A stretch of 12,040 bases of DNA from a virus. Taxonomy: Duplodnaviria; Heunggongvirae; Uroviricota; Caudoviricetes. The stretch's first letter is position 1. Every line of letters starts with the position of its first letter. Below, one piece after another: positions 189 through 12,040 of the stretch. The notes under the pieces were generated by a model. The model was not told the DNA's origin. It worked only from the letters and a program-made list of their open reading frames with translations, and did no database searches. Position numbers and translations under genes: made by a program. The stretch lies in IMG/VR virus record IMGVR_UViG_2751185968_000006. One strand, given 5' to 3'.

Positions 189-243
189 GCAAGCACCTTA
201 AAATCACCATCATACACTAAATCAGTAAGTTGGCAGCATTACC
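1..243 (-). mobile_element. IS1-family insertion sequence, partial; continues beyond the left window edge, terminal inverted repeat ends at 243
   Basis: Reverse complement of 232-243 is GGTAATGCTGCC, followed by AACTTACTGATTTAGTGTATGATGGTG, matching the IS1 left terminal repeat as recalled. The insA reading frame follows on the minus strand. Confidence 0.85.
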
Positions 244-2605
244 AATTAACGGAGGGTATCAGTACATTGAAATGAATGGTACCGCAGAATACTCAGTATT
301 AAATGACGGTTATCAAATTGTTCAAATGGGTGGCGCGGCAAACCAGACTACCCTCAATAATGGTGTGCTACAGGTTTATGGCGCAGCGAATGATCCCACG
401 ATTAAAGGCGGGCGCTTAATCGTTGAAAAAGATGGGATTACCGTCCTTGCCGCTATCGAAAAGGGAGGATTACTGGAGGTTAAAGAGGGGGGATTAGCGA
501 TTGCGGTAGATCAGAAAGCAGGCGGTGCTATTAAAGCAAGCACGCGGGTCATGGAGGCATTCGGAATAAACCGTCTCGGTCAGTTCGAAATCAAGAATGG
601 TATTGCTAACAATATGCTGTTGGAAAACGGCGGAAGTTTGCGAGTTGAAGAAAATGACTTCGCTTATAATACTACTGTAGATAGTGGCGGCTTACTGGAG
701 GTTATGGATGGCGGGACTGCAACTGGCGTTGATAAAAAAGCAGGCGGAAAATTAATTGTCTCAACGAATGCGCTGGAAGTGAGTGGTACAAACAGTAAAG
801 GCCAATTTAGTATAAAAGATGGTGTGTCAAAAAATTATGAACTGGATGATGGTTCCGGGCTCATTGTTATGGAGGACACGCAGGCCATTGATACTATCCT
901 TGATGAGCATGCCACTATGCAATCGCTGGGAAAGGATACTGGTACGAAAGTGCAGGCAAATGCGGTATATGATCTCGGTCGATCAGACCAGAATGGAAGT
1001 ATCACGTATTCCTCTAAAGCCATCTCTGAAAATATGGTTATCAACAATGGCCGCGCTAATGTCTGGGCTGGCACAATGGTTAACGTGTCAGTCAGAGGGA
1101 ATGATGGCATTCTTGAGGTCATGAAGCCGCAAATAAATTATGCACCCGCTATGTTGGTGGGTAAGGTAGTGGTTTCTGAGGGCGCTTCTTTTAGAACGCA
1201 TGGTGCCGTGGATACCAGCAAAGCGGACGTTTCGCTCGAAAATAGCGTATGGGCCATCATTGCCGATATCACTACGACGAACCAAAACACCCTCCTCAAC
1301 TTAGCCAACCTTGCGATGTCTGACGCAAATGTGATTATGATGGATGAGCCAGTGACTCGTTCATCAGTGACGGCAAGTGCGGAAAATTTCATTACGTTGA
1401 CCACCAATACCCTGTCGGGAAACGGCAATTTTTATATGCGTACCGATATGGCTAATCATCAGAGCGATCAGCTCAACGTCACCGGTCAGGCAACAGGTGA
1501 TTTCAAAATATTCGTGACGGACACCGGTGCCAGCCCGGCAGCAGGAGATAGCCTTACACTGGTAACAACGGGCGGCGGTGATGCTGCATTTACGTTGGGC
1601 AATGCCGGAGGCGTTGTTGATATCGGTACGTATGAATATACCTTGCTGGATAATGGCAACCATAGCTGGAGTTTGGCAGAGAATCGCGCGCAAATTACCC
1701 CTTCAACCACTGATGTGCTGAATATGGCGGCCGCACAACCGCTGGTATTTGATGCAGAACTGGACACCGTGCGTGAGCGTCTTGGTAGCGTAAAAAGCGT
1801 TAGTTACGATACGGCGATGTGGAGTTCGGCAATTAACACCCGCAACAACGTGACCACTGATGCGGGAGCTGGTTTTGAGCAAACATTGACGGGCCTGACG
1901 CTCGGTATCGATAGCCGTTTCTCCCGTGAAGAAAGCAGTACAATTCGCGGCTTGTTCTTTGGTTACTCTCATTCTGATATTGGTTTTGATCGCGGCGGAA
2001 AAGGTAATATCGATAGCTATACCCTGGGGGCTTATGCCGGTTGGGAGCATCAGAACGGTGCCTATGTTGATGGGGTGGTGAAAGTTGACCGTTTTGCCAA
2101 CACCATCCATGGCAAGATGAGTAATGGGGCAACAGCGTTTGGCGATTACAATAGTAACGGCGCGGGTGCTCATGTTGAGAGCGGGTTCCGTTGGGTTGAC
2201 GGATTGTGGAGTGTTAGACCCTATCTGGCCTTTACCGGCTTTACCACAGATGGTCAGGACTACACGTTATCAAACGGCATGCGCGCTGATGTGGGAAATA
2301 CCCGGATATTACGCGCTGAAGCGGGAACGGCGGTAAGCTATCACATGGACCTGCAAAATGGTACGACGCTGGAACCCTGGCTGAAAGCCGCCGTACGTCA
2401 GGAATACGCCGATTCTAACCATGTGAAAGTTAATGACGATGGCAAATTTAATAATGATGTGGCTGGAACCCCTGGCGTTTATCAGGCTGGGATAAGGTCA
2501 TCGTTTACCCCGACGTTAAGCGGTCATTTGTCAGTCAGCTATGGCAATGGCGCAGGGGTAGAATCGCCGTGGAATACTCAGGCGGGAGTGGTCTGGACGT
2601 TCTGA
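230..2605 (+). CDS. AIDA-I/Ag43-type autotransporter adhesin, 5'-truncated by IS1 (probable pseudogene: no signal peptide, no credible start)
   Basis: 791-aa ORF with repetitive GG-x-L-x-V passenger-type repeats and a C-terminal beta-barrel-like domain ending in aromatic residues (VVWTF). The frame runs into the IS1 terminal repeat; the only start is a TTG at 230 inside IS1, with an in-frame stop at 218-220. Confidence 0.75.
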   Translation: MAALPINGGYQYIEMNGTAEYSVLNDGYQIVQMGGAANQTTLNNGVLQVYGAANDPTIKGGRLIVEKDGITVLAAIEKGGLLEVKEGGLAIAVDQKAGGAIKASTRVMEAFGINRLGQFEIKNGIANNMLLENGGSLRVEENDFAYNTTVDSGGLLEVMDGGTATGVDKKAGGKLIVSTNALEVSGTNSKGQFSIKDGVSKNYELDDGSGLIVMEDTQAIDTILDEHATMQSLGKDTGTKVQANAVYDLGRSDQNGSITYSSKAISENMVINNGRANVWAGTMVNVSVRGNDGILEVMKPQINYAPAMLVGKVVVSEGASFRTHGAVDTSKADVSLENSVWAIIADITTTNQNTLLNLANLAMSDANVIMMDEPVTRSSVTASAENFITLTTNTLSGNGNFYMRTDMANHQSDQLNVTGQATGDFKIFVTDTGASPAAGDSLTLVTTGGGDAAFTLGNAGGVVDIGTYEYTLLDNGNHSWSLAENRAQITPSTTDVLNMAAAQPLVFDAELDTVRERLGSVKSVSYDTAMWSSAINTRNNVTTDAGAGFEQTLTGLTLGIDSRFSREESSTIRGLFFGYSHSDIGFDRGGKGNIDSYTLGAYAGWEHQNGAYVDGVVKVDRFANTIHGKMSNGATAFGDYNSNGAGAHVESGFRWVDGLWSVRPYLAFTGFTTDGQDYTLSNGMRADVGNTRILRAEAGTAVSYHMDLQNGTTLEPWLKAAVRQEYADSNHVKVNDDGKFNNDVAGTPGVYQAGIRSSFTPTLSGHLSVSYGNGAGVESPWNTQAGVVWTF

Positions 2606-2698: not shown

Positions 2699-3109
2699 TG
2701 GGATTCACGAGAGTAGTTTAATTGAGCGTGTAACTTCATGATTTAAAATAATGTATATGATTCAACTTTTAAACCGTATAACCAAACGTATAACTAAAAT
2801 GATTTGCTGAAAAAATGCACAATTCAGGGTCGGATTTTCCCGGATGTTTAATTTATAAAAACGAAGCTGGTGGATGATCTGCGTGGTGATTTCCACCATT
2901 CAGAGCAGGGGCGGTCATCATGCCCATGCCATAACAAAAACCCCATATTCGTGGTTTTTCTGTGTTGTGGCTATTCTGCCGTTGCCGTGCTGGTGGATAT
3001 TTCCGTTATGGGGATCACCATATCGGCATCATGCCCACCAGCCAGCGCAATTTTGCGCTTTGCTTTAAGTTCAGCAAGTTACCGCGCCGGATTACGCCAA
3101 TGGCTGTTT

Positions 3110-3287
3110 CCGAAAGAATCAACGGGTTAGGCCTTAATGGGCTGCGTGGTAATTATCAGCATCCAGAATATGACGGGTTATGTTTCCGACCTCCTCAATT
3201 TGAGGTTCCCGAAAATATCAACGGGTTAGGCTGGTTTCCCCGATGTTCGCCGCTGGCGAATTTCGAAAATATCAACCAGTTACCGCC
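3110..3287 (+). repeat. Three direct copies of a ~22-bp motif (consensus near CGAAAATATCAACGGGTTAGGC) in a non-coding stretch at the element boundary
   Basis: Copies at 3110-3133 (CCGAAAGAATCAACGGGTTAGGCC), 3208-3232 (CCCGAAAATATCAACGGGTTAGGCT) and 3262-3287 (TTCGAAAATATCAACCAGTTACCGCC). A palindrome CCTCAATTTGAGG lies at 3193-3205. Confidence 0.5.
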
Positions 3288-3561
3288 GCAACCGCTCCGG
3301 CTTCTTCCAGTGGTATGTAATTTTCTCCGTTTCCCGATACAGTGCCACGCGGCGATTGTAGGCCAGCATTTCAAGAACGCGGATCCGTATGTTGCGCATA
3401 TCCACATCATTAAGCTGGATACCATCACGGCGCATCACCTCAGCAACAACACGCGCATAATTTTCGGCTGTCACGCTGTCCGGCTGCGTGGCCTGTTCGT
3501 CAGTCTGCTGGCTGATTCCACCAGCACGGCGGATTAATCCCAGTATTTCGGCTTCTGTCAT
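3280..3561 (-). CDS. Hypothetical protein (93 aa), last gene of the satellite-like element
   Basis: ORF with ATG at 3561 preceded by an AGGTG Shine-Dalgarno 4 nt upstream. No recognisable family. Confidence 0.5.
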   Translation of the reverse strand: MTEAEILGLIRRAGGISQQTDEQATQPDSVTAENYARVVAEVMRRDGIQLNDVDMRNIRIRVLEMLAYNRRVALYRETEKITYHWKKPERLRR

Positions 3562-3595: not shown

Positions 3596-3780
3596 GGGTC
3601 CTTCCTGGAATTATGGACCCGTTACGGGGCGGCGACCTCGCGCGTTTTCACTATTTATGAAAATTTTTCGGGATCCATGTCCGGTTTCTCTACAAGTTAA
3701 CCATATGAAAAATATAAAAACATGCTTTCCATGAACCGGACATGCGCAAAAAACAGACACTAAAACCGGACATCGAACCA
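3596..3780 (+). other. Lambda-type cos site, copy A (plus orientation): cosQ-like flank, cosN, and cosB-like region with three ACCGGACAT repeats
   Basis: GTTACG at 3621-3626 then GGGCGGCGACCT at 3627-3638 (the 12-nt lambda cohesive-end sequence), then CGCGCGTTTTCACTATTTATGAAAATTTT resembling the lambda left end as recalled. Repeats: CATGTCCGG 3676-3684 (inverted), ACCGGACAT 3735-3743 and 3765-3773. Confidence 0.6.
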
Positions 3781-3841: not shown

Positions 3842-4276
3842 TTACTGTTCTGTATCGGCTGATTGCTCCATGCTGGCACGGCGAACGCTTACGGCATGAC
3901 GCCACCCAGCCAGAAAGCCAGCCATTTTATTTCGTGCCTTGCTCACATCTTCCGGTGAATAGCCGTAAATCTGCAAACCTTCATCAAATCGATGTTCTGT
4001 TTCTTCACTGGAGTACTCGTCACGCTCAGATGAAAGCAGCCTGGCAAACATAATTTTTTCCAGCGCACTGGTTTCTACGTGATATCTGATGGCCTCAAGA
4101 CGGCTTTTACCTGAAGACCAAAGCAATGTATGCCCGATGTGATAACCGCCAGACTTTCCGCGATCCGCATTAAGATACGGCATCCCCTGTTTGGTCCATG
4201 CGCGAATAGTGGTTCTGTTAACCTTGAAATGTTCAGCTATTTCCTGCTGACTTACAAAACAAGCTTTATCAATCAT
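3842..4276 (-). CDS. Terminase small subunit-like protein (lambda Nu1-type N-terminal HTH), 144 aa; candidate packaging-redirecting (Rpp-like) protein
   Basis: N-terminus QQEIAEHFKVNRTTIRAWTKQGMPY resembles lambda Nu1 KKQLADIFGASIRTIQNWQEQGMPV (from memory). It is shorter than Nu1, sits about 90 bp downstream of cos copy B on the same strand, and no large terminase gene is present. Confidence 0.7.
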   Translation of the reverse strand: MIDKACFVSQQEIAEHFKVNRTTIRAWTKQGMPYLNADRGKSGGYHIGHTLLWSSGKSRLEAIRYHVETSALEKIMFARLLSSERDEYSSEETEHRFDEGLQIYGYSPEDVSKARNKMAGFLAGWRHAVSVRRASMEQSADTEQ

Positions 4277-4343: not shown

Positions 4344-4407
4344 TCATAAATAGCGAAAACCCGCGAGGTCGCCGCCCCGTAACGGGCCATAATTCCAGGA
4401 AGGACCC
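4344..4407 (-). other. Lambda-type cos site, copy B (minus orientation), immediately upstream of the TerS-like gene; inverted relative to copy A
   Basis: Minus-strand reading is GGGTCCTTCCTGGAATTATGGCCCGTTACG-GGGCGGCGACCT-CGCGGGTTTTCGCTATTTATGA; cosN lies at 4366-4377. About 64 bp are near-identical to copy A (3596-3660) in inverted orientation. Confidence 0.65.
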
Positions 4408-4409
4408 GC

Positions 4410-4431
4410 AAAAAAGCCGGATTTCTCCGGC
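4410..4431 (-). terminator. Rho-independent terminator-like hairpin after the 137-aa gene; copy 1 of a thrice-repeated hairpin
   Basis: Plus strand AAAAAA-GCCGGA-TTTC-TCCGGC (stem 4416-4421 / 4426-4431). On the minus strand the hairpin is followed by T6. Confidence 0.45.
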
Positions 4432-4437
4432 CTTGTC

Positions 4438-4851
4438 TCAGATGGTTTTCAGTATGCGATCGATGTCGCCGTCATCGCCTGGGTTTCTGCCATCGTATGC
4501 CATGCCAGCTGATACGGTTTGTGGGCTGTGCATGTCCATAAAGTTTTCAAAGGCTGCGGTAAGCTCTGGTGCAACCTTCGGGCGTTCCTGCTCTATGGTC
4601 ATGTTCAGGATGTTTTTAGCCGTATCAACATCGATACAAGGCACGTTTGCCATTGCACGCAACAGCGGCTGATAGTCTTTATGCTCATGAAGCGCCATAA
4701 TCGCATCAGCGCGCGGCTTGTCCTGCTCTTCCAGTTTGTTGAGTTGATATACGGCCTCGTAGGTTGATAAACCTCTGTCAGCCATTGCCCGCGCTTCGGC
4801 TTTAAATTTACTCGCCAGCGGTAGCGCCATGATGCTTTCATTCGTTGCCAT
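4438..4851 (-). CDS. Hypothetical protein (137 aa) between decoration-like gene and cos; possible head or packaging accessory protein
   Basis: ORF with ATG at 4851 and a GGGGGA Shine-Dalgarno sequence. Position matches a capsid/packaging module; no family recognised. Confidence 0.5.
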   Translation of the reverse strand: MATNESIMALPLASKFKAEARAMADRGLSTYEAVYQLNKLEEQDKPRADAIMALHEHKDYQPLLRAMANVPCIDVDTAKNILNMTIEQERPKVAPELTAAFENFMDMHSPQTVSAGMAYDGRNPGDDGDIDRILKTI

Positions 4852-4863
4852 CGTTCCCCCTGC

Positions 4864-5167
4864 TTATCGGGCCAGCGGCTGAACGGATACGCCAGAACCC
4901 GCAAAGGCGGCGCATTTTTTCGCATCGGTGTCGACGCTCTCAGGCCAGTTAACGGCGGCAATATTGAATATCCCCGTCTTGTAACACTGTGCTGATTTCT
5001 GCTTTGACGTGTCCACGAGGTACGAAGTCAGATAAACAGCCTTGCCAGATTCCTGACCATCCCACGGCTTAAACTCGCCATTGTCCACCAGCATCAGCGG
5101 CAAAATGTACCAGTGTCGTTGATACCTGCTGACTGCCTGCAAATAACTCAATATATGGAGTGTCCAT
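4864..5167 (-). CDS. Head decoration protein, lambda gpD-like; possibly frameshifted
   Basis: The C-terminal frame (supplied ORF 4864-5151) reads PLMLVD...WDGQ...YKTGIF...WPESVD...KKCAAFAGSG, paralleling lambda gpD PLMLD...WDG...YKSGTF...WPEA...KKRTAFAG (from memory). The only ATG with a good RBS (GGGGGA) is at 5167 in another frame, which stops at 5069. Confidence 0.55.
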
Positions 5168-5178
5168 ATAATCCCCCG

Positions 5179-6234
5179 TTAACCAATTTTGACGGTAACA
5201 AATTTGCGAATATCTGCCGGAACCGGCTGCGGTGCGCTGTGTGTCTGCACGTACTCAATCGCCGGATCGCCGTCCTCAATCCAGTTTTTCGGGTAGTACA
5301 TGTTTTGCGTTGCGCCCGTTCTTACCGCTTCCTGATCCATAATCGCACCATAGGCCACCAGCCCTTTATTGTTGGTGTTGCCCAGGACCAGCAAATCAGG
5401 CTCAAGGAAATATTTTTCGGTGCCGTCGCTGTCAGTGTATTTGCCGGAATAGACAATAAGAGCAATATCGCCCAGATAGCCTTTAAAGCTCACCACTTCG
5501 CCCAGGTTTTTACAGGCCATTTCTGCGGCGGATTCTGAACCACGGGAAAGATCGTACAGTTCACGGAATTTTTTAAAGCTGCGTAACGTGCGCCATACCT
5601 CAGCGCCCATAATCATGACGTTGGCGGGGCAACCTGCCTGATCTGCGTATAGTTCGATGTCATAGATTGGATCGTAAATATCTTTATCATGCTCGGACCA
5701 TTTTTTGCCGTCGGACTGCTCTATGATGTTTTTTTCCGGTATCTTCCAGTCGATTTCATAGCGTTCTATGCCTTCGCCCTCAATGATGTTTTTTCCGGTC
5801 GTTACCGCATTCACCGCCAGCCATTCCACGCGTGCCTTAATGGCGTTTATCTGGCGGCGCATGTTGCCAGTAATCAGGCGCATACGGCGATAGGTAGGGT
5901 CGTTAAGCTGTGCCGGATCTTCTCCAGCCATGCGCATGATGGTTTTCGTTGGATCGATTTCGTGCTTTGGCTTCATGTAGCCAGGTTTGATTGTGCTGGT
6001 TTCGTACCCTTTATCGCGCTGAACCTGGCTACCCACCATAGGCGAACAAAACGCCGACATGGTGACTTCTTCAATGTCCAGGGTATCCAGCATGATGTTT
6101 TGCGTGCTGAATGTCGCCACGTTCGGGAAAAACAGCGTGGTAAACAGAGGGCTGAATTTAAAATCCGCAATATCCCCGCGATTCAGGTACATAAAAAGCT
6201 GGTTAGTGTTAAGTGCCGTTGCTTTGCCTGCCAT
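5179..6234 (-). CDS. Major capsid protein, lambda gpE family (351 aa)
   Basis: Collinear similarity to lambda gpE as recalled: FKFSPLFTTLFF vs FKFDPLFLRLFF, PGYMKPKHEIDP vs PGYVKPKHEVNP, DPTYRRMRLITGNMR vs DPAYRRRRIIMQNMR, YKGYLGDIALIVYSG vs YKGMYGDVAIVVYSG, YPKNWIEDGDPA vs YPKNWVTTGDPA. Confidence 0.9.
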   Translation of the reverse strand: MAGKATALNTNQLFMYLNRGDIADFKFSPLFTTLFFPNVATFSTQNIMLDTLDIEEVTMSAFCSPMVGSQVQRDKGYETSTIKPGYMKPKHEIDPTKTIMRMAGEDPAQLNDPTYRRMRLITGNMRRQINAIKARVEWLAVNAVTTGKNIIEGEGIERYEIDWKIPEKNIIEQSDGKKWSEHDKDIYDPIYDIELYADQAGCPANVMIMGAEVWRTLRSFKKFRELYDLSRGSESAAEMACKNLGEVVSFKGYLGDIALIVYSGKYTDSDGTEKYFLEPDLLVLGNTNNKGLVAYGAIMDQEAVRTGATQNMYYPKNWIEDGDPAIEYVQTHSAPQPVPADIRKFVTVKIG

Positions 6235-6440
6235 TATTCACCCCCATAATTTTTATGCATCCCAAGCGCCGCAAGTAAATAAGAGCGTACAAGTGAACCT
6301 ATCGACGGCTCCGGCGTCATCAGCGGATCCAGTCCAGCCGCCACGCCAGCCTCATAGTTTTTTTTGTGGCGCTGCTTGAGCACCTCCACGATTTCGGGGC
6401 TTATGTACACCGAAACACCGCCTTTTTTCTCTTCAGCCAT
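6234..6440 (-). CDS. Hypothetical small protein (about 68 aa), translationally coupled to the major capsid gene
   Basis: Likely start at ATG 6440 (MAEEKKGG...) with AAGAGGAA upstream; the supplied ORF extends to 6473 without an RBS. Its stop overlaps the capsid start as TAATG at 6232-6236. Confidence 0.45.
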   Translation of the reverse strand: MAEEKKGGVSVYISPEIVEVLKQRHKKNYEAGVAAGLDPLMTPEPSIGSLVRSYLLAALGMHKNYGGE

Positions 6441-6493
6441 AGTAAGAAATTCCTCTTCGACTAAAAAAATCATAACTGGATGTTTATCCAGTC

Positions 6494-6642: not shown

Positions 6643-6648
6643 GGGCGC

Positions 6649-6670
6649 AAAAAAGCCGGATTGCTCCGGC
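6649..6670 (-). terminator. Rho-independent terminator-like hairpin after the 74-aa gene; copy 2 of the repeated hairpin
   Basis: Plus strand AAAAAA-GCCGGA-TTGC-TCCGGC (stem 6655-6660 / 6665-6670); T6 follows on the minus strand. Confidence 0.45.
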
Positions 6671-6915: not shown

Positions 6916-7011
6916 TGTTTTTTTCCTCTGTTGTGTCTGTTTGTTTCAGATAGTAACTATGCCTGACCGTGACGAAAACCCGGTAATGCGCCATACCGTT
7001 TCAACTGGTGC

Positions 7012-7033
7012 AAAAAAGCCGGATTTCTCCGGC
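7012..7033 (-). terminator. Rho-independent terminator-like hairpin after the PerC-like gene; copy 3 of the repeated hairpin
   Basis: Plus strand AAAAAA-GCCGGA-TTTC-TCCGGC (stem 7018-7023 / 7028-7033); T6 follows on the minus strand. Confidence 0.45.
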
Positions 7034-7040
7034 TGTTTGA

Positions 7041-7313
7041 TTAGCTGTCCTGGTAATTGCGCCATATTTCATCACCAGCACCATCTATACCCATTTCGGC
7101 ATAAGTGCGATCGACTGCCTTTTTCAGGTCTCCGAAATTATCCGGCGGCTCCGGTGCCCTCTGTGCCTTCCTTGAACATTCCAGCCGTCGCATCGTGATG
7201 TGATGCCGTTCCTTGTCTGTCTCCACCAGCTGCATGACTTCACCCCATCGCGCCGCCGCCCTCCGGTAAAAGCCTTTCGCCTCCAGTTCCTCCGCTATGC
7301 GGTCATGTACCAT
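7041..7313 (-). CDS. PerC-family-like transcriptional regulator (about 90 aa)
   Basis: Likely start at ATG 7313 with a strong GAGGGGGTG RBS. The protein MVHDRIAEELEAKGFYRRAAARWGEVMQLVETDKERHHITMRRLEC fits the PerC/Pch pattern (LE..G.WRRAA.RW...TD.ER) as recalled. Confidence 0.45.
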   Translation of the reverse strand: MVHDRIAEELEAKGFYRRAAARWGEVMQLVETDKERHHITMRRLECSRKAQRAPEPPDNFGDLKKAVDRTYAEMGIDGAGDEIWRNYQDS

Positions 7314-7323
7314 CGTCACCCCC

Positions 7324-7734
7324 TCAGAACGAAATATCATCACCGTAAGGGTCATCGCCTCCCGCTGGTGGCTGATTACCCTGTGTGCCTGTGGTTTTGC
7401 GTCTGTTCCCGCCTGGACGTGCCGCGCGGGCACTGATTACGCTGTCTGCGATAACCTGCCAGCCCTGCCGCGTTTCTCCGTTCTGTCCGGTCCACTGGCT
7501 TACCTGCATCGTGCCGGATACGCTGGCAACATCGCCTTTTTGATGTTTAGCCAGGAAGTCGGCCTGTTTGCCAAATGCGATGACCGATAACCATAACGTC
7601 GCCTGTCCGTCCTGTGCCTGGCTGCATGGCAAAGATACCGCCATACGCGCCAGCGTCATCGGTGTGCCCTTGCTGGTCTGTTTTACCTGCGGGTCGTCCA
7701 CCAGCCGCCCGTAAGCGGCTATCTGTGCCGTCAT
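7324..7734 (-). CDS. Single-stranded DNA-binding protein (SSB)-like, 136 aa
   Basis: N-terminus IAAYGRLVDDPQVK resembles the SSB OB-fold start (VILVGNLGQDPEVR), and the C-terminal acidic tip PYGDDISF resembles DDDIPF. The start overlaps the upstream stop as ATGA. Confidence 0.65.
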   Translation of the reverse strand: MTAQIAAYGRLVDDPQVKQTSKGTPMTLARMAVSLPCSQAQDGQATLWLSVIAFGKQADFLAKHQKGDVASVSGTMQVSQWTGQNGETRQGWQVIADSVISARAARPGGNRRKTTGTQGNQPPAGGDDPYGDDISF

Positions 7735-8182: not shown

Positions 8183-8530
8183 TTATAGCGGCGCTACATC
8201 ATCCCCATCGATACTAATAACCCCATCTTTTTCCAGCTTGTACAGCCAGCGCCGGAAGTTTTTCATTTCATACCCCAGCTTTTTCATGTCATCACGTAAC
8301 AGCGGGATCGTGCACTTGTCGCCGTTCTGTGTGCGTGAACGGATGCACCCCCATAGCGCGGTATGGTTTTCCGTCTTGTTCCCTGCCTCCTCGATGCGCT
8401 CCAGTTCAACAGGAGGGCGCGGATCATCCACCACCACCAGCGACGTGATTAATTCACCGTCAGCGTCGGTAAAAAGCTCCACCACGCGTAAGTCATATGC
8501 GGCTTCTTTGAGTTCCTCCGCGTCCTTCAT
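8183..8530 (-). CDS. Replication protein, C-terminal fragment (second piece of a frameshifted primase/helicase-type gene)
   Basis: This frame stays open upstream of the annotated ATG to about 8638 and there encodes DESARGSSAFRASLDAEY, the expected continuation after the HHSGKD motif of RecA-like replication ATPases. Confidence 0.6.
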   Translation of the reverse strand: MKDAEELKEAAYDLRVVELFTDADGELITSLVVVDDPRPPVELERIEEAGNKTENHTALWGCIRSRTQNGDKCTIPLLRDDMKKLGYEMKNFRRWLYKLEKDGVISIDGDDVAPL

Positions 8531-9582
8531 TTTGGTGCATGAGATAACCAGCGCTTTGCTTCCTGCGTCCTCCCTGCGTATCCGGTATTCAGCATCCAGC
8601 GAAGCACGAAATGCACTGGAACCGCGCGCGCTTTCGTCTCATCCTTGCCGGAATGGTGAACCACCAGCACCGTGGCCCCTGTGCGTCGTTTCAGTTCGTC
8701 ACAACCACGGATAAACGCCCCCATATCACGGGAATCATTTTCATCATTCCCACCAAAGCAACGCGCCAGCGTATCCAGAATAATCATGCGTACAGGTTTA
8801 CCCGTTTCCCGCTCCACCTGACGGGCAGCGATAACCATTTCATCAACATCAAGCGGGGCAGCCGGAAAGATGGGGCGGTTTACCAGATACAGATTTTTCA
8901 CCTGCTCATCGTGCACAACCTCCCAGGCTTTTACACGACGCGGAACGCCGATACCGCCTTCACCAACCACATAGAGAACCGCACCATGTGCAACCCTGCG
9001 GCCTCCCCACTGGCGACCAGTGGCAACATGGCACGCCCACGATCCGGCAAGGAATGATTTATAGGACCCGCTAGCCCCGTATATGCTGCATAGCGATACC
9101 GCCGGAATAATCCCCTTAACCACGTAATCCAGTTGCGTGTCGTATCCGGTAGATCCAACGCTCATCGGTAGCGTGGTTTTTCGCTGGTGGTTTTTTTCTT
9201 CCACCGGCTCTTTCCCGCGCACCCGTTCCAGGTATTCGCGCCAGTTCTCCCGCATATGGCTGTGCATCCCTTCGGGGTAATAATTCGCATCAGTTACACC
9301 CGCCGCCGCCAGCTTGTGCGCAATGGCATTAATATTTGATGGCCTGATGTGGCCTGCCTTGTACAGCCGGACACAATAGCGCCCCTCGTCGATGATTCTC
9401 AGGTCTGCCAGTTCATCCAGTTGATCATCAGCCAGCACAACGGGAGGCACATTATCGCCAGCCAGTCGCCCGTCCTGTTCCTGCCACTGTTTTGCATGTG
9501 CCCAGGCATCACTACCCGCAAAAATAATGACTTCGGTCATCTTGTCGTAAGGCTGTTTTTTTAAGTTCGGTGCGCTTTTCAT
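8527..9582 (-). CDS. Primase/helicase-type replication protein (RepA-like P-loop ATPase), N-terminal fragment ending prematurely after a frameshift
   Basis: Walker A GASGSYKS, Walker B MIILDTLARCF, then VLVVHHSGKDE typical of RepA-like helicases. The frame then reads TKARAVPVHF... to a stop at 8527, just downstream of a (CG)4 tract at 8623-8631. Confidence 0.75.
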   Translation of the reverse strand: MKSAPNLKKQPYDKMTEVIIFAGSDAWAHAKQWQEQDGRLAGDNVPPVVLADDQLDELADLRIIDEGRYCVRLYKAGHIRPSNINAIAHKLAAAGVTDANYYPEGMHSHMRENWREYLERVRGKEPVEEKNHQRKTTLPMSVGSTGYDTQLDYVVKGIIPAVSLCSIYGASGSYKSFLAGSWACHVATGRQWGGRRVAHGAVLYVVGEGGIGVPRRVKAWEVVHDEQVKNLYLVNRPIFPAAPLDVDEMVIAARQVERETGKPVRMIILDTLARCFGGNDENDSRDMGAFIRGCDELKRRTGATVLVVHHSGKDETKARAVPVHFVLRWMLNTGYAGRTQEAKRWLSHAPK

Positions 9583-9878
9583 TTCTTGCCCCTGAATCCG
9601 TTAATCATGGTTTTCAGCTTCTGGATGTTTGCCCGTGCCCTGGCGTTGCTGGTGGGCACGTTATGCGGCGCGGTCTGTACCAGAGAAAAATCACGCCGGA
9701 ACTGATAAACAGGCATCACGCAATCATATTCGTAACCTTCACGGCGGTAGGTTACACGCCGTTCTTCCACGCCCTTAATCATTACCGTGCCGCCGTACTG
9801 GTCGCGGTAAATATCACCGCGCGTAAATTTAGGGTGAGTGTTGCCACTGGCAGTTAAGCCAGAATATTTAAGTTTCAT
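9579..9878 (-). CDS. Hypothetical protein (99 aa), coupled to the replication gene
   Basis: ORF in the tiled minus-strand operon; its stop overlaps the replication gene start (ATGA). Overlapping plus-strand ORFs have junk-like composition. Confidence 0.45.
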   Translation of the reverse strand: MKLKYSGLTASGNTHPKFTRGDIYRDQYGGTVMIKGVEERRVTYRREGYEYDCVMPVYQFRRDFSLVQTAPHNVPTSNARARANIQKLKTMINGFRGKK

Positions 9879-10747: not shown

Positions 10748-10836
10748 AACGGCTCCTAGTTTACGTTGTTGGTTAGAAGCCCTGCGAGTGGTAATGACAC
10801 TTGCGGGGCTTTGCTTTTTTAAGTGCTCTTGTGTTA

Positions 10837-10883
10837 AGGTGGCCACCTAACAATGGAAAGGCTAATTCAATAGGTGACCACTT
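10837..10883. promoter_or_regulatory. Divergent control region with two related operator-like sites and a consensus -35 hexamer
   Basis: Perfect 12-bp palindrome AGGTGGCCACCT (10837-10848) and a related half-palindromic site AGGTGACCACTT (10872-10883), about 35 bp apart. TTGACA reads on the minus strand at 10888-10883. Confidence 0.35.
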
Positions 10884-10941
10884 GTCAATAATCAAACGCG
10901 ATAAAAGCCCTAAAGGGGACGGGCAATCCCCACAATTCAGA

Positions 10942-11073
10942 ATGCGAATTTCTCCAGAGCTAAAAGAGCAATTCGACAAAGAAGCACAGAGCGACGGCAT
11001 AAGCCTAGCCAACTGGCTTAAAGAGTTGGGGCGCACTGAACTAAAGCGGCGCGGCATAGAACCCAAAGGATAA
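10942..11073 (+). CDS. Small ribbon-helix-helix (Arc/CopG-like) DNA-binding protein, 43 aa; candidate repressor
   Basis: MRISPELKEQFDKEAQSDGISLANWLKELGRTELKRRG fits the RHH pattern of a short N-terminal beta-strand followed by two helices. It is divergent from the main operon and next to the operator-like palindromes; its RBS is weak. Confidence 0.45.
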   Translation: MRISPELKEQFDKEAQSDGISLANWLKELGRTELKRRGIEPKG

Positions 11074-11452: not shown

Positions 11453-11659
11453 TTAAGCAGCCGTTCCGCGTGCTTCCTGTTCGCGTTCTTTCTGCCAGGC
11501 CAACACATCATCCTCATACCATCCGCGACGGCGTAAACCAACGCGAAAACCCTGCGGAAATTCTCCGGCGTTGATCATGCTTTGCAGCGTGCTGTCTGCC
11601 TTGATGTGGATAATTTTTTTTACTTCCTGGCGAAAGATAATTTTTCTGATTGCTTCCAT
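11453..11659 (-). CDS. alpA: AlpA-family (phage excisionase/regulator-like) DNA-binding protein, 68 aa
   Basis: KADSTLQSMINAGEFPQGFRVGLRRRGWYEDDVLAWQ matches the AlpA/Xis-type pattern (...FP.P.K.G.R...W...EV..W) as recalled. Confidence 0.7.
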   Translation of the reverse strand: MEAIRKIIFRQEVKKIIHIKADSTLQSMINAGEFPQGFRVGLRRRGWYEDDVLAWQKEREQEARGTAA

Positions 11660-11764
11660 CGTGATTTACCTTGTGAATCCGGTGTATTCCGGTGACAAAT
11701 ACGGTAAATCATCGGATATGGGTAAAAACAGTTCCCACCGTTTTTAAACGGTATACACCGTTTT

Positions 11765-12040
11765 GGTAATGACTCCAACTTACTGATAGTGTTTTATGTT
11801 CAGATAATGCCCGATGACCTTGTCATGCAGCTCCACCGATTTTGAGAACGACAGTGACTTCCGTCCCAGCCTTGCCAGATGTTGTCTCAGATTCAGATTA
11901 TGTCGCTCAATGCGCTGAGTGTAACGCTTGCTGATAACGTGCAGCTTTCCCTTCAGGCGTGATTCATACAGCGGCCAGCCATCCGTCATCCATACCACGA
12001 CCTCAAAGGCCGACAGCAGGCTCAGAAGACGCTCCAGTGT
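11765..12040 (-). mobile_element. IS1-family insertion sequence, partial; right terminal repeat at 11765, continues beyond the right window edge
   Basis: GGTAATGACTCCAACTTACTGATAGTGTTTTATGTTCAGATAATGCCCGATGAC from 11765 matches the IS1 right terminal repeat as recalled. The insB frame follows on the minus strand. Confidence 0.9.
11780..12040 (-). CDS. insB: IS1 InsB transposase, C-terminal part (gene runs off the window edge)
   Basis: Minus-strand translation [86 protein letters not shown] matches the InsB C-terminus as recalled; it is in frame to the window edge. Confidence 0.85.

Follow-up and report, generated by a model that had tools for sequence, protein, structure and literature searches.

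Helper-induced excision, replication, and high-frequency transfer have been shown for EcCICFT073 only, and the related 042 island gave no transfer with the resident prophages (PMC6092414). EcCICFT073 has two cos sites reported to be functional and encodes a capsid protein (c1499) followed by a head decoration protein (c1500), in the same order as at the locus described here (PMC6092414). According to a later survey, 21 of the 29 reference Gram-negative PICIs have a major capsid gene, which helper-assisted transfer does not require (PMC10111431). Deletion of c1499 or c1500 left resident-prophage transfer and lambda interference unchanged, and all of the DNA packaged with lambda was phage-sized (PMC6092414); an island carrying c1498-c1501::cas9 was still transduced with phi80. 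The cassette has thus been shown to be dispensable with lambda, phi80, and the CFT073 prophage. According to engineering notes, island size has to be kept at an exact fraction of the helper genome, and this implies that multimers are packaged into full heads. When the EcCICFT073 genes downstream of ori were expressed singly, c1503 alone inhibited lambda; it also inhibited phi80, and did not inhibit HK97.

Several other satellites encode capsid proteins. SaPIbov5 (Ccm) and PmCI172 resemble the E. coli islands in that each encodes a diverged, helper-type major capsid protein but no complete head module; whereas redirection of capsid size and a block of the helper have been demonstrated for Ccm, the E. 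coli cassette produced no size change and no phenotype with the helpers tested. The helper-embedded Gram-negative PICI 11capE likewise has its own gpE-family capsid gene, which its authors suggested could back up the helper gene (PMC10111431), but 11capE is integrated inside helper late genes and the island described here lies at a chromosomal tRNA-Pro site. Capsid-forming PICIs (cf-PICIs) such as EcCIEDL933 share with this island the int, alpA, and rep backbone and a capsid gene; in contrast to it, they add a protease, a portal, head-tail connectors, HNH, TerS, and TerL and form their own small heads.

Identity and boundaries of the island

The window (the whole 12,040-nucleotide stretch of viral DNA analysed, from IMG/VR) contained an island with 99.9% nucleotide identity over its whole length to SbCISb227 of Shigella boydii Sb227, which together with SdCI1012 makes up the Shigella PICIs catalogued in Table S1 of Fillol-Salom 2018 (PMC6092414). 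Its att core, CCGTATAACCAAACGTATAACTA, was the reverse complement of the SbCISb227/SdCI1012 att given in that table, and the yejM-aidA (yejO) site was common to all three islands. Compared with SbCISb227, the window copy lacked 32 bp of the decoration gene and 1 bp of rep, had an IS1 at 11765, and showed a small number of point differences. In Sb227 the island spans 10.7 kb, again at yejM-aidA (Table S1, PMC6092414), and complete relatives were flanked by yejO and tRNA-Pro, in agreement with the size of about 10-15 kb, the bounding att repeats, and the site without prophage use that define a classical Gram-negative PICI. It had helper-type cos sites and Rpp, an AlpA-like regulator, and genes that all lay on the minus strand, from 11659 to 3280 (Table 1). 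Profile searches of the window and of complete near-identical islands found no tail, lysis, portal, or TerL genes, and the cf-PICI set (portal, protease, head-tail adaptor/connector, TerS, TerL) was likewise not found in either. By these sequence features the island is a classical cos/Rpp-type Gram-negative PICI that had already been catalogued.

An earlier note on this DNA had placed the island between classical and capsid-forming PICIs, on the premise that classical E. coli PICIs take helper capsids. That premise did not hold, since such islands do carry capsid and decoration genes (c1499 and c1500; a capsid gene in 21 of 29 reference PICIs). The architecture is the classical one, with the EcCICFT073 gene order, and the comparison with catalogued PICIs that the note had proposed returned SbCISb227 itself; because classical PICIs carry capsid and decoration genes, the island is not an intermediate class. 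The note's statement that portal, protease, and TerL are lacking was correct both for the window and for near-identical islands with both ends visible, and the HMM search that it had suggested recovered the capsid and decoration families and none of those three.

Near-identical islands with both ends visible ran from int through the 93-aa ORF and held no further genes, and such complete relatives ruled out that the missing head genes lie in flanking DNA. A rearranged prophage fragment was ruled out by the island's own backbone of att, alpA, rep, SSB, and Rpp, and by a capsid clade with at most 47% identity to that of any phage. Homologues of lambda A, B, or C occurred in just 4 of 80 IMG/VR loci: three came from larger contigs (20-55 kb), in which full or near-half-length lambda late-gene homologues lay beside the capsid cassette, and the fourth, L070, had only a short, partial match to gpA at its end. 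The cassette was found in 598 of 5426 complete E. coli genomes. A scan of a one-genome-per-species contig collection with the capsid protein returned no relative; its E. coli representative evidently has no island.

Table 1. Features of the island and its edges, with window coordinates, strand, and best supporting match
Feature	Position	Strand	Evidence
att core, right-hand island end beside yejO/aidA	2774..2796	+	CCGTATAACCAAACGTATAACTA, single occurrence in window, 0 in shuffles
93-aa conserved PICI protein, annotated without function, last island gene	3280..3561	-	phrog_1561, E 1e-55
cos2, second lambda-type cosN, inverted relative to cos1	3627..3660	+	32/34 bases as in lambda cosN
rpp (redirecting phage packaging)	3842..4276	-	PDB 6hlk RppC, E 5e-31
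cos1, exact lambda cosN	4344..4377	-	34/34 bases, GGGCGGCGACCTCGCGGGTTTTCGCTATTTATGA; 0 matches in 200 shuffles
Terminator-like hairpin closing the head-gene cassette	4408..4431	-	GCCGGAGAAATCCGGCTTTTTTGC
137-aa Nu3-like scaffold homologue, c1501 orthologue	4438..4851	-	phrog_1999, E 4e-65
gpD-like head decoration gene, frameshifted pseudogene, c1500 orthologue	4864..5167	-	Pfam HDPD, E 2e-13 on C-terminal ORF
lambda gpE-family major capsid protein, intact, 351 aa, c1499 orthologue	5179..6234	-	Pfam PF03864, E 3e-51
68-aa conserved small protein, c1498 position	6234..6440	-	phrog_3255, E 2e-54
PerC-family regulator, accessory gene listed for SbCISb227 (Table S1, PMC6092414)	7041..7313	-	Pfam PerC, E 1e-42
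Island SSB	7324..7734	-	Pfam SSB, E 2e-16
RepA-type replicative helicase, pseudogene, split by 1-bp deletion	8183..9582	-	AAA_25, E 2e-43
AlpA-like regulator/excisionase, 68 aa	11453..11659	-	phrog_66, E 6e-7
IS1 copy abutting island, between alpA and expected int	11765..12040	-	DDE_Tnp_IS1, E 3e-38

The head-gene cassette

Four parts make up the cassette: the 68-aa protein, the capsid (gpE-like) and decoration (gpD-like) proteins, and a fragment resembling the Nu3 scaffold. On the coding strand the order was small ORF, E, D, 137-aa gene, cos, and Rpp; the order E then D is the reverse of that in lambda (Nu3-D-E), as the earlier note had observed. All three lambda protein families are represented in the island, which differs from lambda in its reversed transcript order and in lacking protease C, portal B, W, terminase A, and FI/FII.

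That the island carries a clear lambda gpE-family capsid gene was confirmed by an alignment over the full length of the Phage_cap_E family (174.7 bits, gathering cut-off 22.9; profile positions 16-328 of 329) and by a match to phrog_29 at E 2e-107. The capsid protein shared 44% identity with lambda gpE in an alignment of 327 aa, and was 95.7% identical to c1499 of CFT073 and 47% identical to the closest capsid protein of a sequenced phage. The stop codon of the 68-aa gene overlaps the capsid start (ATGA), and an alternative start at 6473 would give 79 aa. PICIs of E. coli and Salmonella have this gene directly before the one for the capsid protein, with 47% identity. An AF2 model of its product (pLDDT 72) had two helices and gave no match below E 2.9 when compared with the PDB by Foldseek. 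We make no claim of a ribbon-helix-helix fold, as entries of that type appeared solely among insignificant Foldseek matches.

The gpD homology of the decoration gene proposed earlier was upheld, but the gene is not intact. Compared with the islands of 042 and Sb227, the gene has lost 32 bp between two direct copies of a 13-bp repeat, CCAGCATCAGCGG, and this deletion, with its junction at 5088-5100, shifts the reading frame. Translation that begins at the ATG at 5167 meets a stop after 32 codons, and the C-terminal gpD part is left as an ORF with a TTG start (4864-5151) that retains only profile positions 43-112 of PF02924, less than an intact gpD-like protein. In relatives the intact protein is 111 aa long. 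The gene was 96% identical to its CFT073 counterpart at the protein level, and the gpD-like product was 36% identical to lambda gpD over the C-terminal 76 aa. Public assemblies contain the identical truncated product in 74 blocks; the deletion was confined to a Shigella lineage and was carried by none of the 80 IMG/VR loci. Gene decay is general in that Shigella lineage.

Of the two small proteins that had been called unknown, the 68-aa protein kept that description and the 137-aa protein did not, and with this the earlier statement that there is no scaffold gene also fell. The 137-aa product is homologous to the C-terminal third of lambda Nu3 (about 75 residues), and a scaffold role is predicted for it. 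Lambda Nu3 itself matched phrog_1999 (E 2.7e-26), and the 137-aa protein also matched the C-terminal end of phrog_53 (E 3e-9). Comparison with Nu3-like proteins by hhalign gave a probability of 97% and E 8e-11, pairing residues 45-119 with Nu3 residues 120-189, and a profile search of 1.8 billion proteins with the 137-aa protein reached proteins with the Nu3 repeat (E 3e-8). The 137-aa protein had no counterpart to the N-terminal two thirds of Nu3. The protein was 93.5% identical to that of CFT073; tblastn against 50,697 phages gave no match, and nothing was found in a PDB sequence search or in NCBIfam. Its AF2 model (pLDDT 47) was too poor for structure searching. The name given by NCBI to relatives of this protein, head-tail connector protein, was disregarded, as no profile search supported it. 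The Nu3-like gene was missing from some related PICIs (L009 and L011), and the three-part kit is therefore not universal. This partner of the capsid/decoration pair is unmentioned in the cited PICI papers.

The claim that the cassette ends in cos and a TerS-like gene was half right: cosN was matched at 34 of 34 bases, and the supposed TerS-like gene is Rpp. The Rpp sequence was 100% identical, at both the amino acid and nucleotide levels, to the CFT073 gene at the c1503/RppA position, and profile searches gave a weak Nu1-type HTH at its N-terminus. The position of the 93-aa gene was common to the 042, CFT073, and Sb227 islands (dN/dS 0.24). The window island thus resembles EcCICFT073 in having two cos sites and the c1498-c1503 order of 68-aa gene, capsid, decoration, 137-aa gene, cos, Rpp, and 93-aa gene. 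It differs in its integration site (tRNA-Pro/yejM-yejO versus ycfD-phoQ), its replicase (a RepA helicase versus a primase), its 68-aa protein (just 68% identity), its frameshifted decoration and replicase genes, and its adjacent IS1.

Conservation and selection

All 80 IMG/VR loci had an intact capsid gene, and the decoration gene was likewise undamaged in all 78 that could be assessed. Values of dN/dS were 0.13 for the capsid gene, 0.10 for the decoration gene, 0.28 for the Nu3-like gene, and 0.27 for the 68-aa gene, with dS between 0.14 and 0.37, and the cassette is clearly under purifying selection. The capsid-decoration pair was syntenic in PICIs across genera in which the capsid proteins were merely 56-68% identical. 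Purifying selection means that some function exists; it does not tell which one.

The island was already in a catalogue, the presence of capsid and decoration genes has been on record since 2018, and their dispensability for transfer is likewise known. New here are the purifying selection on the cassette, its intactness in 78-80 of 80 loci, and its identity of at most 47% to sequenced phages. That about one in ten complete E. coli genomes has a satellite bearing a complete, diverged, selected capsid-decoration pair together with a scaffold-like partner is an already recognised puzzle, and solving the function of the cassette would show whether classical PICIs sometimes add their own shell proteins to transducing particles.

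Possible roles of the cassette

We think it likely that the region is a conserved c1498-c1501-type head-gene cassette of a classical cos/Rpp enterobacterial PICI that would co-assemble conditionally on helper parts. Homology and the published experiments on the orthologous EcCICFT073 show the island's means of spread, with lambda-type cos sites and Rpp side by side: Rpp binds TerS of the helper and directs its terminase to the island cos, and heads of phage size made by the helper take up the island concatemers. The cassette itself is probably a long-diverged, selectively kept, matched set of shell, cement, and scaffold proteins, and as such a set it most likely still assembles. Co-assembly would be conditional, with certain lambdoid helpers providing the portal and protease, and could back up, modify, or compete with the helper's shell; the cassette is presumably not a self-sufficient head module. 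No phenotype of the capsid or decoration gene was found in the published deletions, in either transfer or interference (PMC6092414), and, as the DNA packaged with lambda was phage-sized, neither co-assembly nor size redirection has direct support.

A more ambitious reading, which we regard as doubtful, is that the 68-aa protein and the gpE-, gpD-, and Nu3-like proteins form a selected minimal shell kit that gives chimeric or smaller satellite heads on the portal and protease of further lambdoid helpers. If this were true, classical Rpp-type PICIs would under some conditions form part of the capsid themselves, and would connect to cf-PICIs in both evolution and function. The chimeric or resized capsids proposed in the earlier note were contradicted for the helpers tried, with which the deletions were neutral, lambda-packaged DNA was phage-sized, and the c1498-c1501::cas9 island was transduced with phi80.

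Similarly unlikely is a device that redirects head size or shape in the manner of SaPIbov5 Ccm, in which the island capsid and Nu3-like proteins would build small heads on the portal of the right helper, as the earlier note had suggested in proposing resized capsids. It has precedents in Ccm and in PmCI172, which has a capsid homologue and forms small heads, and it would fit both the purifying selection on a matched capsid, decoration, and scaffold set and the shortened scaffold homologue, of which just the C-terminal part aligns (137 aa versus 201 aa). However, EcCICFT073 DNA was phage-sized with lambda, the c1499 and c1500 deletions left transfer with the resident prophage and lambda interference unchanged, and the exact-fraction size rule implies multimers in full heads.

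We give somewhat less credence to an anti-phage decoy, in which divergent head proteins would poison the head assembly of competing, non-helper lambdoid phages. Interference and defence functions are common on PICIs, the cassette occupies the place where Gram-positive PICIs hold interference genes, and a capsid protein with at most 47% identity to every phage protein fits a dominant-negative relative; yet c1503 was the only singly expressed EcCICFT073 gene downstream of ori to inhibit lambda, mutants lacking the capsid or decoration gene still interfered, and it is not obvious why such a decoy would require a matching decoration protein held at dN/dS 0.10. That the cassette has no function, was left over from a lambdoid prophage or an ancestral capsid-forming island, and is simply carried along accords with the lack of a phenotype and with the decoration gene loss in the window and the truncated allele in 74 assembly blocks, but is very improbable given frames intact in 78-80 of 80 loci, dN/dS of 0.10-0.28 over dS of 0.14-0.37, synteny kept across genera down to 56% protein identity, and a deletion that is limited to a Shigella lineage with general gene decay and occurs in 0 of 80 IMG/VR loci.

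Decay of the window copy and other backbone genes

With its decoration and replicase genes frameshifted and an IS1 abutting alpA, the element is decaying in a Shigella background, and because of these lesions the window copy is unlikely either to spread or to co-assemble efficiently; this broken copy is ill-suited for functional study. In the replicase gene one C was lost at window position 8632, and the 042 and Sb227 islands keep an intact frame of 466 codons; a look-up of the truncated replicase product gave no match. In relatives alpA lies just downstream of int. The window had no int, as IS1 begins at its expected place, and islands 99.9% identical to this one encode a 413-aa integrase there. 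Collinearity with Sb227 stopped at 11764, and the next 276 bases were 100% identical to an IS1 elsewhere in the Sb227 locus. The PerC match spanned residues 41-129 of a longer ORF. The hairpin that closes the cassette was one of three near-identical copies in the window, the other two lying at 6647-6670 and 7010-7033.

Gene content of the island

The island, a phage satellite of the PICI type, has all its genes on the minus strand; it is flanked by a yejO-type autotransporter gene and by an IS1 copy starting at 11765.

Features of the island and its flank, with positions in the window
Feature	Position	Strand	Remark
yejO-type autotransporter gene	230-2605	+	AIDA, Pertactin, Autotransporter domains
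att core	2774-2796		
93-aa ORF	3280-3561	-	
Second cosN, inverted	3627-3660	+	
rpp gene	3842-4276	-	144 aa
cosN	4344-4377	-	exact lambda match
Terminator-like hairpin	4408-4431	-	
137-aa ORF	4438-4851	-	
gpD-like gene	4864-5167	-	
Capsid gene	5179-6234	-	351 aa
68-aa ORF	6234-6440	-	
74-aa ORF	between PerC and 68-aa ORF	-	
PerC	7041-7313	-	
SSB	7324-7734	-	
RepA/AAA_25 helicase	8183-9582	-	broken into two ORFs
DUF4222 protein	9579-9878	-	
Several small conserved ORFs	between AlpA-like regulator and DUF4222 gene (order along the minus strand)	-	
AlpA-like regulator	11453-11659	-	

The 351-aa protein matched almost the entire Pfam Phage_cap_E profile (174.7 bits; cut-off 22.9) and was 44% identical to lambda gpE across 327 residues; judged from its sequence, its earlier assignment as a gpE-family major capsid protein is solid. 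The neighboring decoration gene had been placed in the correct gpD family, but it is not intact. Relative to E. coli 042 and S. boydii Sb227, 32 bp are missing between two copies of the 13-mer CCAGCATCAGCGG, so that the frame from the true ATG (5167) stops after 32 codons, and what remains of gpD is the C-terminal part (HDPD profile positions 43-112) as a TTG-initiated ORF. A sequencing slip can be dismissed as its cause, since 74 blocks of public assemblies record the identical truncated 95-aa product; none of 80 related IMG/VR loci, chosen for capsid identity of 93% or more, had the deletion.

The earlier note had described two small unknown proteins and no scaffold. The 68-aa protein remained without a significant fold match, but the 137-aa protein proved to be a relative of lambda Nu3. 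It is a member of phrog_1999, which Nu3 itself matches through residues 117-200 (E 2.7e-26), and it additionally matches the extreme C-terminus of phrog_53, a head-maturation-protease family. When 1.8 billion representative proteins were searched by profile, Nu3-type-repeat proteins with a shared terminal FxxFMxxHSP motif turned up beyond the close relatives, and profile-profile comparison of the 137-aa protein with lambda Nu3 and the Nu3-repeat proteins gave 97% probability (E 8e-11). We assign it on these matches as a scaffold relative, and the island would thus have a shell protein, a cement protein and a partial scaffold; it lacks a counterpart of the N-terminal two thirds of Nu3 and has no protease.

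The stop codon of the 68-aa gene overlaps the capsid start codon (ATGA), and a weak promoter-like site lies upstream of this gene (6553-6524). PICIs of E. coli and of Salmonella share this 68-aa protein, encoded ahead of the capsid gene, at 47% identity. Its strand-helix-helix pattern is suggestive of a ribbon-helix-helix fold.

Packaging gene and absence of other head genes

The gene next to cos, previously read as TerS-like, is instead assigned as Rpp (redirecting phage packaging): it matched the solved RppC structure (E 5e-31), and neither its protein nor its DNA sequence differs from that of the CFT073 gene occupying the RppA (c1503) position. It is bracketed by two lambda-type cosN in opposite orientation; two functional cos sites have been reported for EcCICFT073, the model island (PMC6092414). 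Among the IMG/VR loci, the packaging partner was a 144-aa Rpp in 20 and a Nu1-like 'small terminase' of about 180-194 aa in 39; another related locus (L010) has its Nu1-like gene on the other strand. The presence of two alternative packaging genes beside cassettes at least 93% identical indicates that the packaging gene is exchanged while the head cassette stays in place.

The island is 99.9% identical to that of Sb227 and to islands in other assemblies in which both ends are visible, extending from a 413-aa integrase at tRNA-Pro/yejM to the 93-aa ORF at yejO. Neither the window nor these complete islands contained a portal, protease, connector or TerL gene, as the earlier note had stated for portal, protease and TerL in the window, nor did the islands of 042, F2_407_2_2 and CFT073 or PICIs with capsids only 68%, 63% and 56% identical. 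From these relatives, we conclude that the flanking DNA is predicted to hide no further head genes. Homologues of lambda A, B or C were found in 4 of the 80 IMG/VR loci. Three are on larger contigs of about 21-54 kb: L049 (54 kb) carries lambda-like A, W and partial B upstream of the satellite capsid cassette and C downstream, and in L051 and L080 the cassette lies beside or between lambda-like B and C. These three look like helper-embedded PICIs of the 11capE kind, or adjacent prophages; the fourth (L070) is a 4.6-kb contig whose one match, to gpA, is short, partial and at the contig end.

Relation to known islands and role of the cassette

Comparison with catalogued PICIs showed that an island with these capsid and decoration genes is already known. 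It matched SbCISb227 (99.9%; CP000036, 2097873-2108605, site yejM-aidA), listed with SdCI1012 in Table S1 of Fillol-Salom et al. 2018 (PMC6092414), where the att sequence is the att core of the window, and its cassette is that of EcCICFT073 (c1498-c1501). Capsid genes are present in 21 of 29 reference Gram-negative PICIs, with transfer possible without them (2023 study, PMC10111431). The architecture is therefore that of a classical PICI. The earlier observation is thus confirmed in part: its gene content largely stands, but the proposed class intermediate between classical and capsid-forming PICIs does not.

What our analysis adds is evidence for selection. The capsid gene was intact in 80/80 IMG/VR loci and the decoration gene in all 78 assessable ones; mean pairwise dN/dS was 0.13 for capsid, 0.10 for decoration, 0.28 for Nu3-like and 0.27 for 68-aa genes (dS 0.14-0.37), in agreement with comparisons of four islands. 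Cassette matches occurred in 598 of 5426 complete E. coli genomes, with the four-gene block at least 90% identical in nucleotide sequence in all but one. We take the cassette to be maintained by selection; that it is a functionless remnant is very improbable. The capsid clade reaches Salmonella, Edwardsiella, Lelliottia, Serratia, Cedecea and Scandinavium (52-68% identity), and capsid-decoration synteny, usually with the small upstream ORF, is retained in diverged PICIs. Among 50,697 sequenced phages, no capsid was more than 47% identical to that of the island and no homologue of the 137-aa protein was detectable by tblastn. Together these observations suggest that the lineage is old and specific to satellites and was not captured recently from a helper.

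In EcCICFT073, c1499 and c1500 were named putative capsid and head decoration proteins; deletion of either left interference with lambda and transfer by the resident prophage unchanged, no phenotype was found for c1499, and lambda-packaged island DNA was entirely phage-sized (PMC6092414). Dokland's review likewise noted the capsid homologue and normal-sized heads, and a c1498-c1501::cas9 island packaged by phi80 lacking cos still delivered its cargo. By orthology to tested genes, packaging would depend on cos and on Rpp, which retargets the helper terminase, and heads would be full-sized and helper-made, at least with lambda. The capsid, decoration and scaffold-like proteins are probably assembly-competent, because they are conserved at full length and the capsid retains every family-invariant residue (20-sequence sample). 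They would most likely act only alongside particular helpers, assembling together with the helper's portal and protease and so supplementing, changing or competing with its shell. Redirection of head size, beside the phage-sized DNA found with lambda, seems unlikely. Slightly less likely still is a decoy or interference role; when the genes downstream of ori were expressed singly, lambda was blocked by c1503 (RppA) alone (Mol Cell 2019). The function of the cassette is a testable question; the window copy itself is of low interest.

Decay of the window copy and minor observations

A single C is missing at 8632, in a GCGCGCGC run, splitting the replicase into 351-aa and 115-aa ORFs; relatives, 042 and Sb227 among them, have an unbroken gene of 466 codons. 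Collinearity with Sb227 is ended by IS1 144 bp past alpA, between alpA and the expected int; its 276 bases (11765-12040) are identical to the IS1 beyond yejO in Sb227, and it could represent an insertion or an IS1-mediated rearrangement. The draft assembly L013 has the identical replicase split, and its contig ends where the window's collinearity ends; two other assemblies have the decoration deletion with replicase and integrase intact. This distribution suggests stepwise decay in a Shigella lineage. As EcCICFT073 transfer was about a hundred-fold lower without pri-rep and abolished without int (PMC6092414), the window copy would be at best poorly mobilisable. Relative to Sb227, the window also lacks TTTG after the yejO terminator (2706) and has one G fewer inside perC (7116), where the window version is the intact one and Sb227 appears frameshifted.

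The hairpin GCCGGAG(A/C)AATCCGGCTTTTTTGC recurs in three near-identical minus-strand copies, 3' of the Nu3-like gene, the 74-aa ORF (6647-6670) and perC (7010-7033), so that the island's late half falls into distinct units. The sole plausible plus-strand ORF within the island (90 aa, 10801-11073) faces a 221-aa minus-strand ORF and weakly matches an Arc-like repressor (phrog_228, E 1e-6); in relatives a YlcI/YnfO-family gene is annotated on the plus strand of this region.
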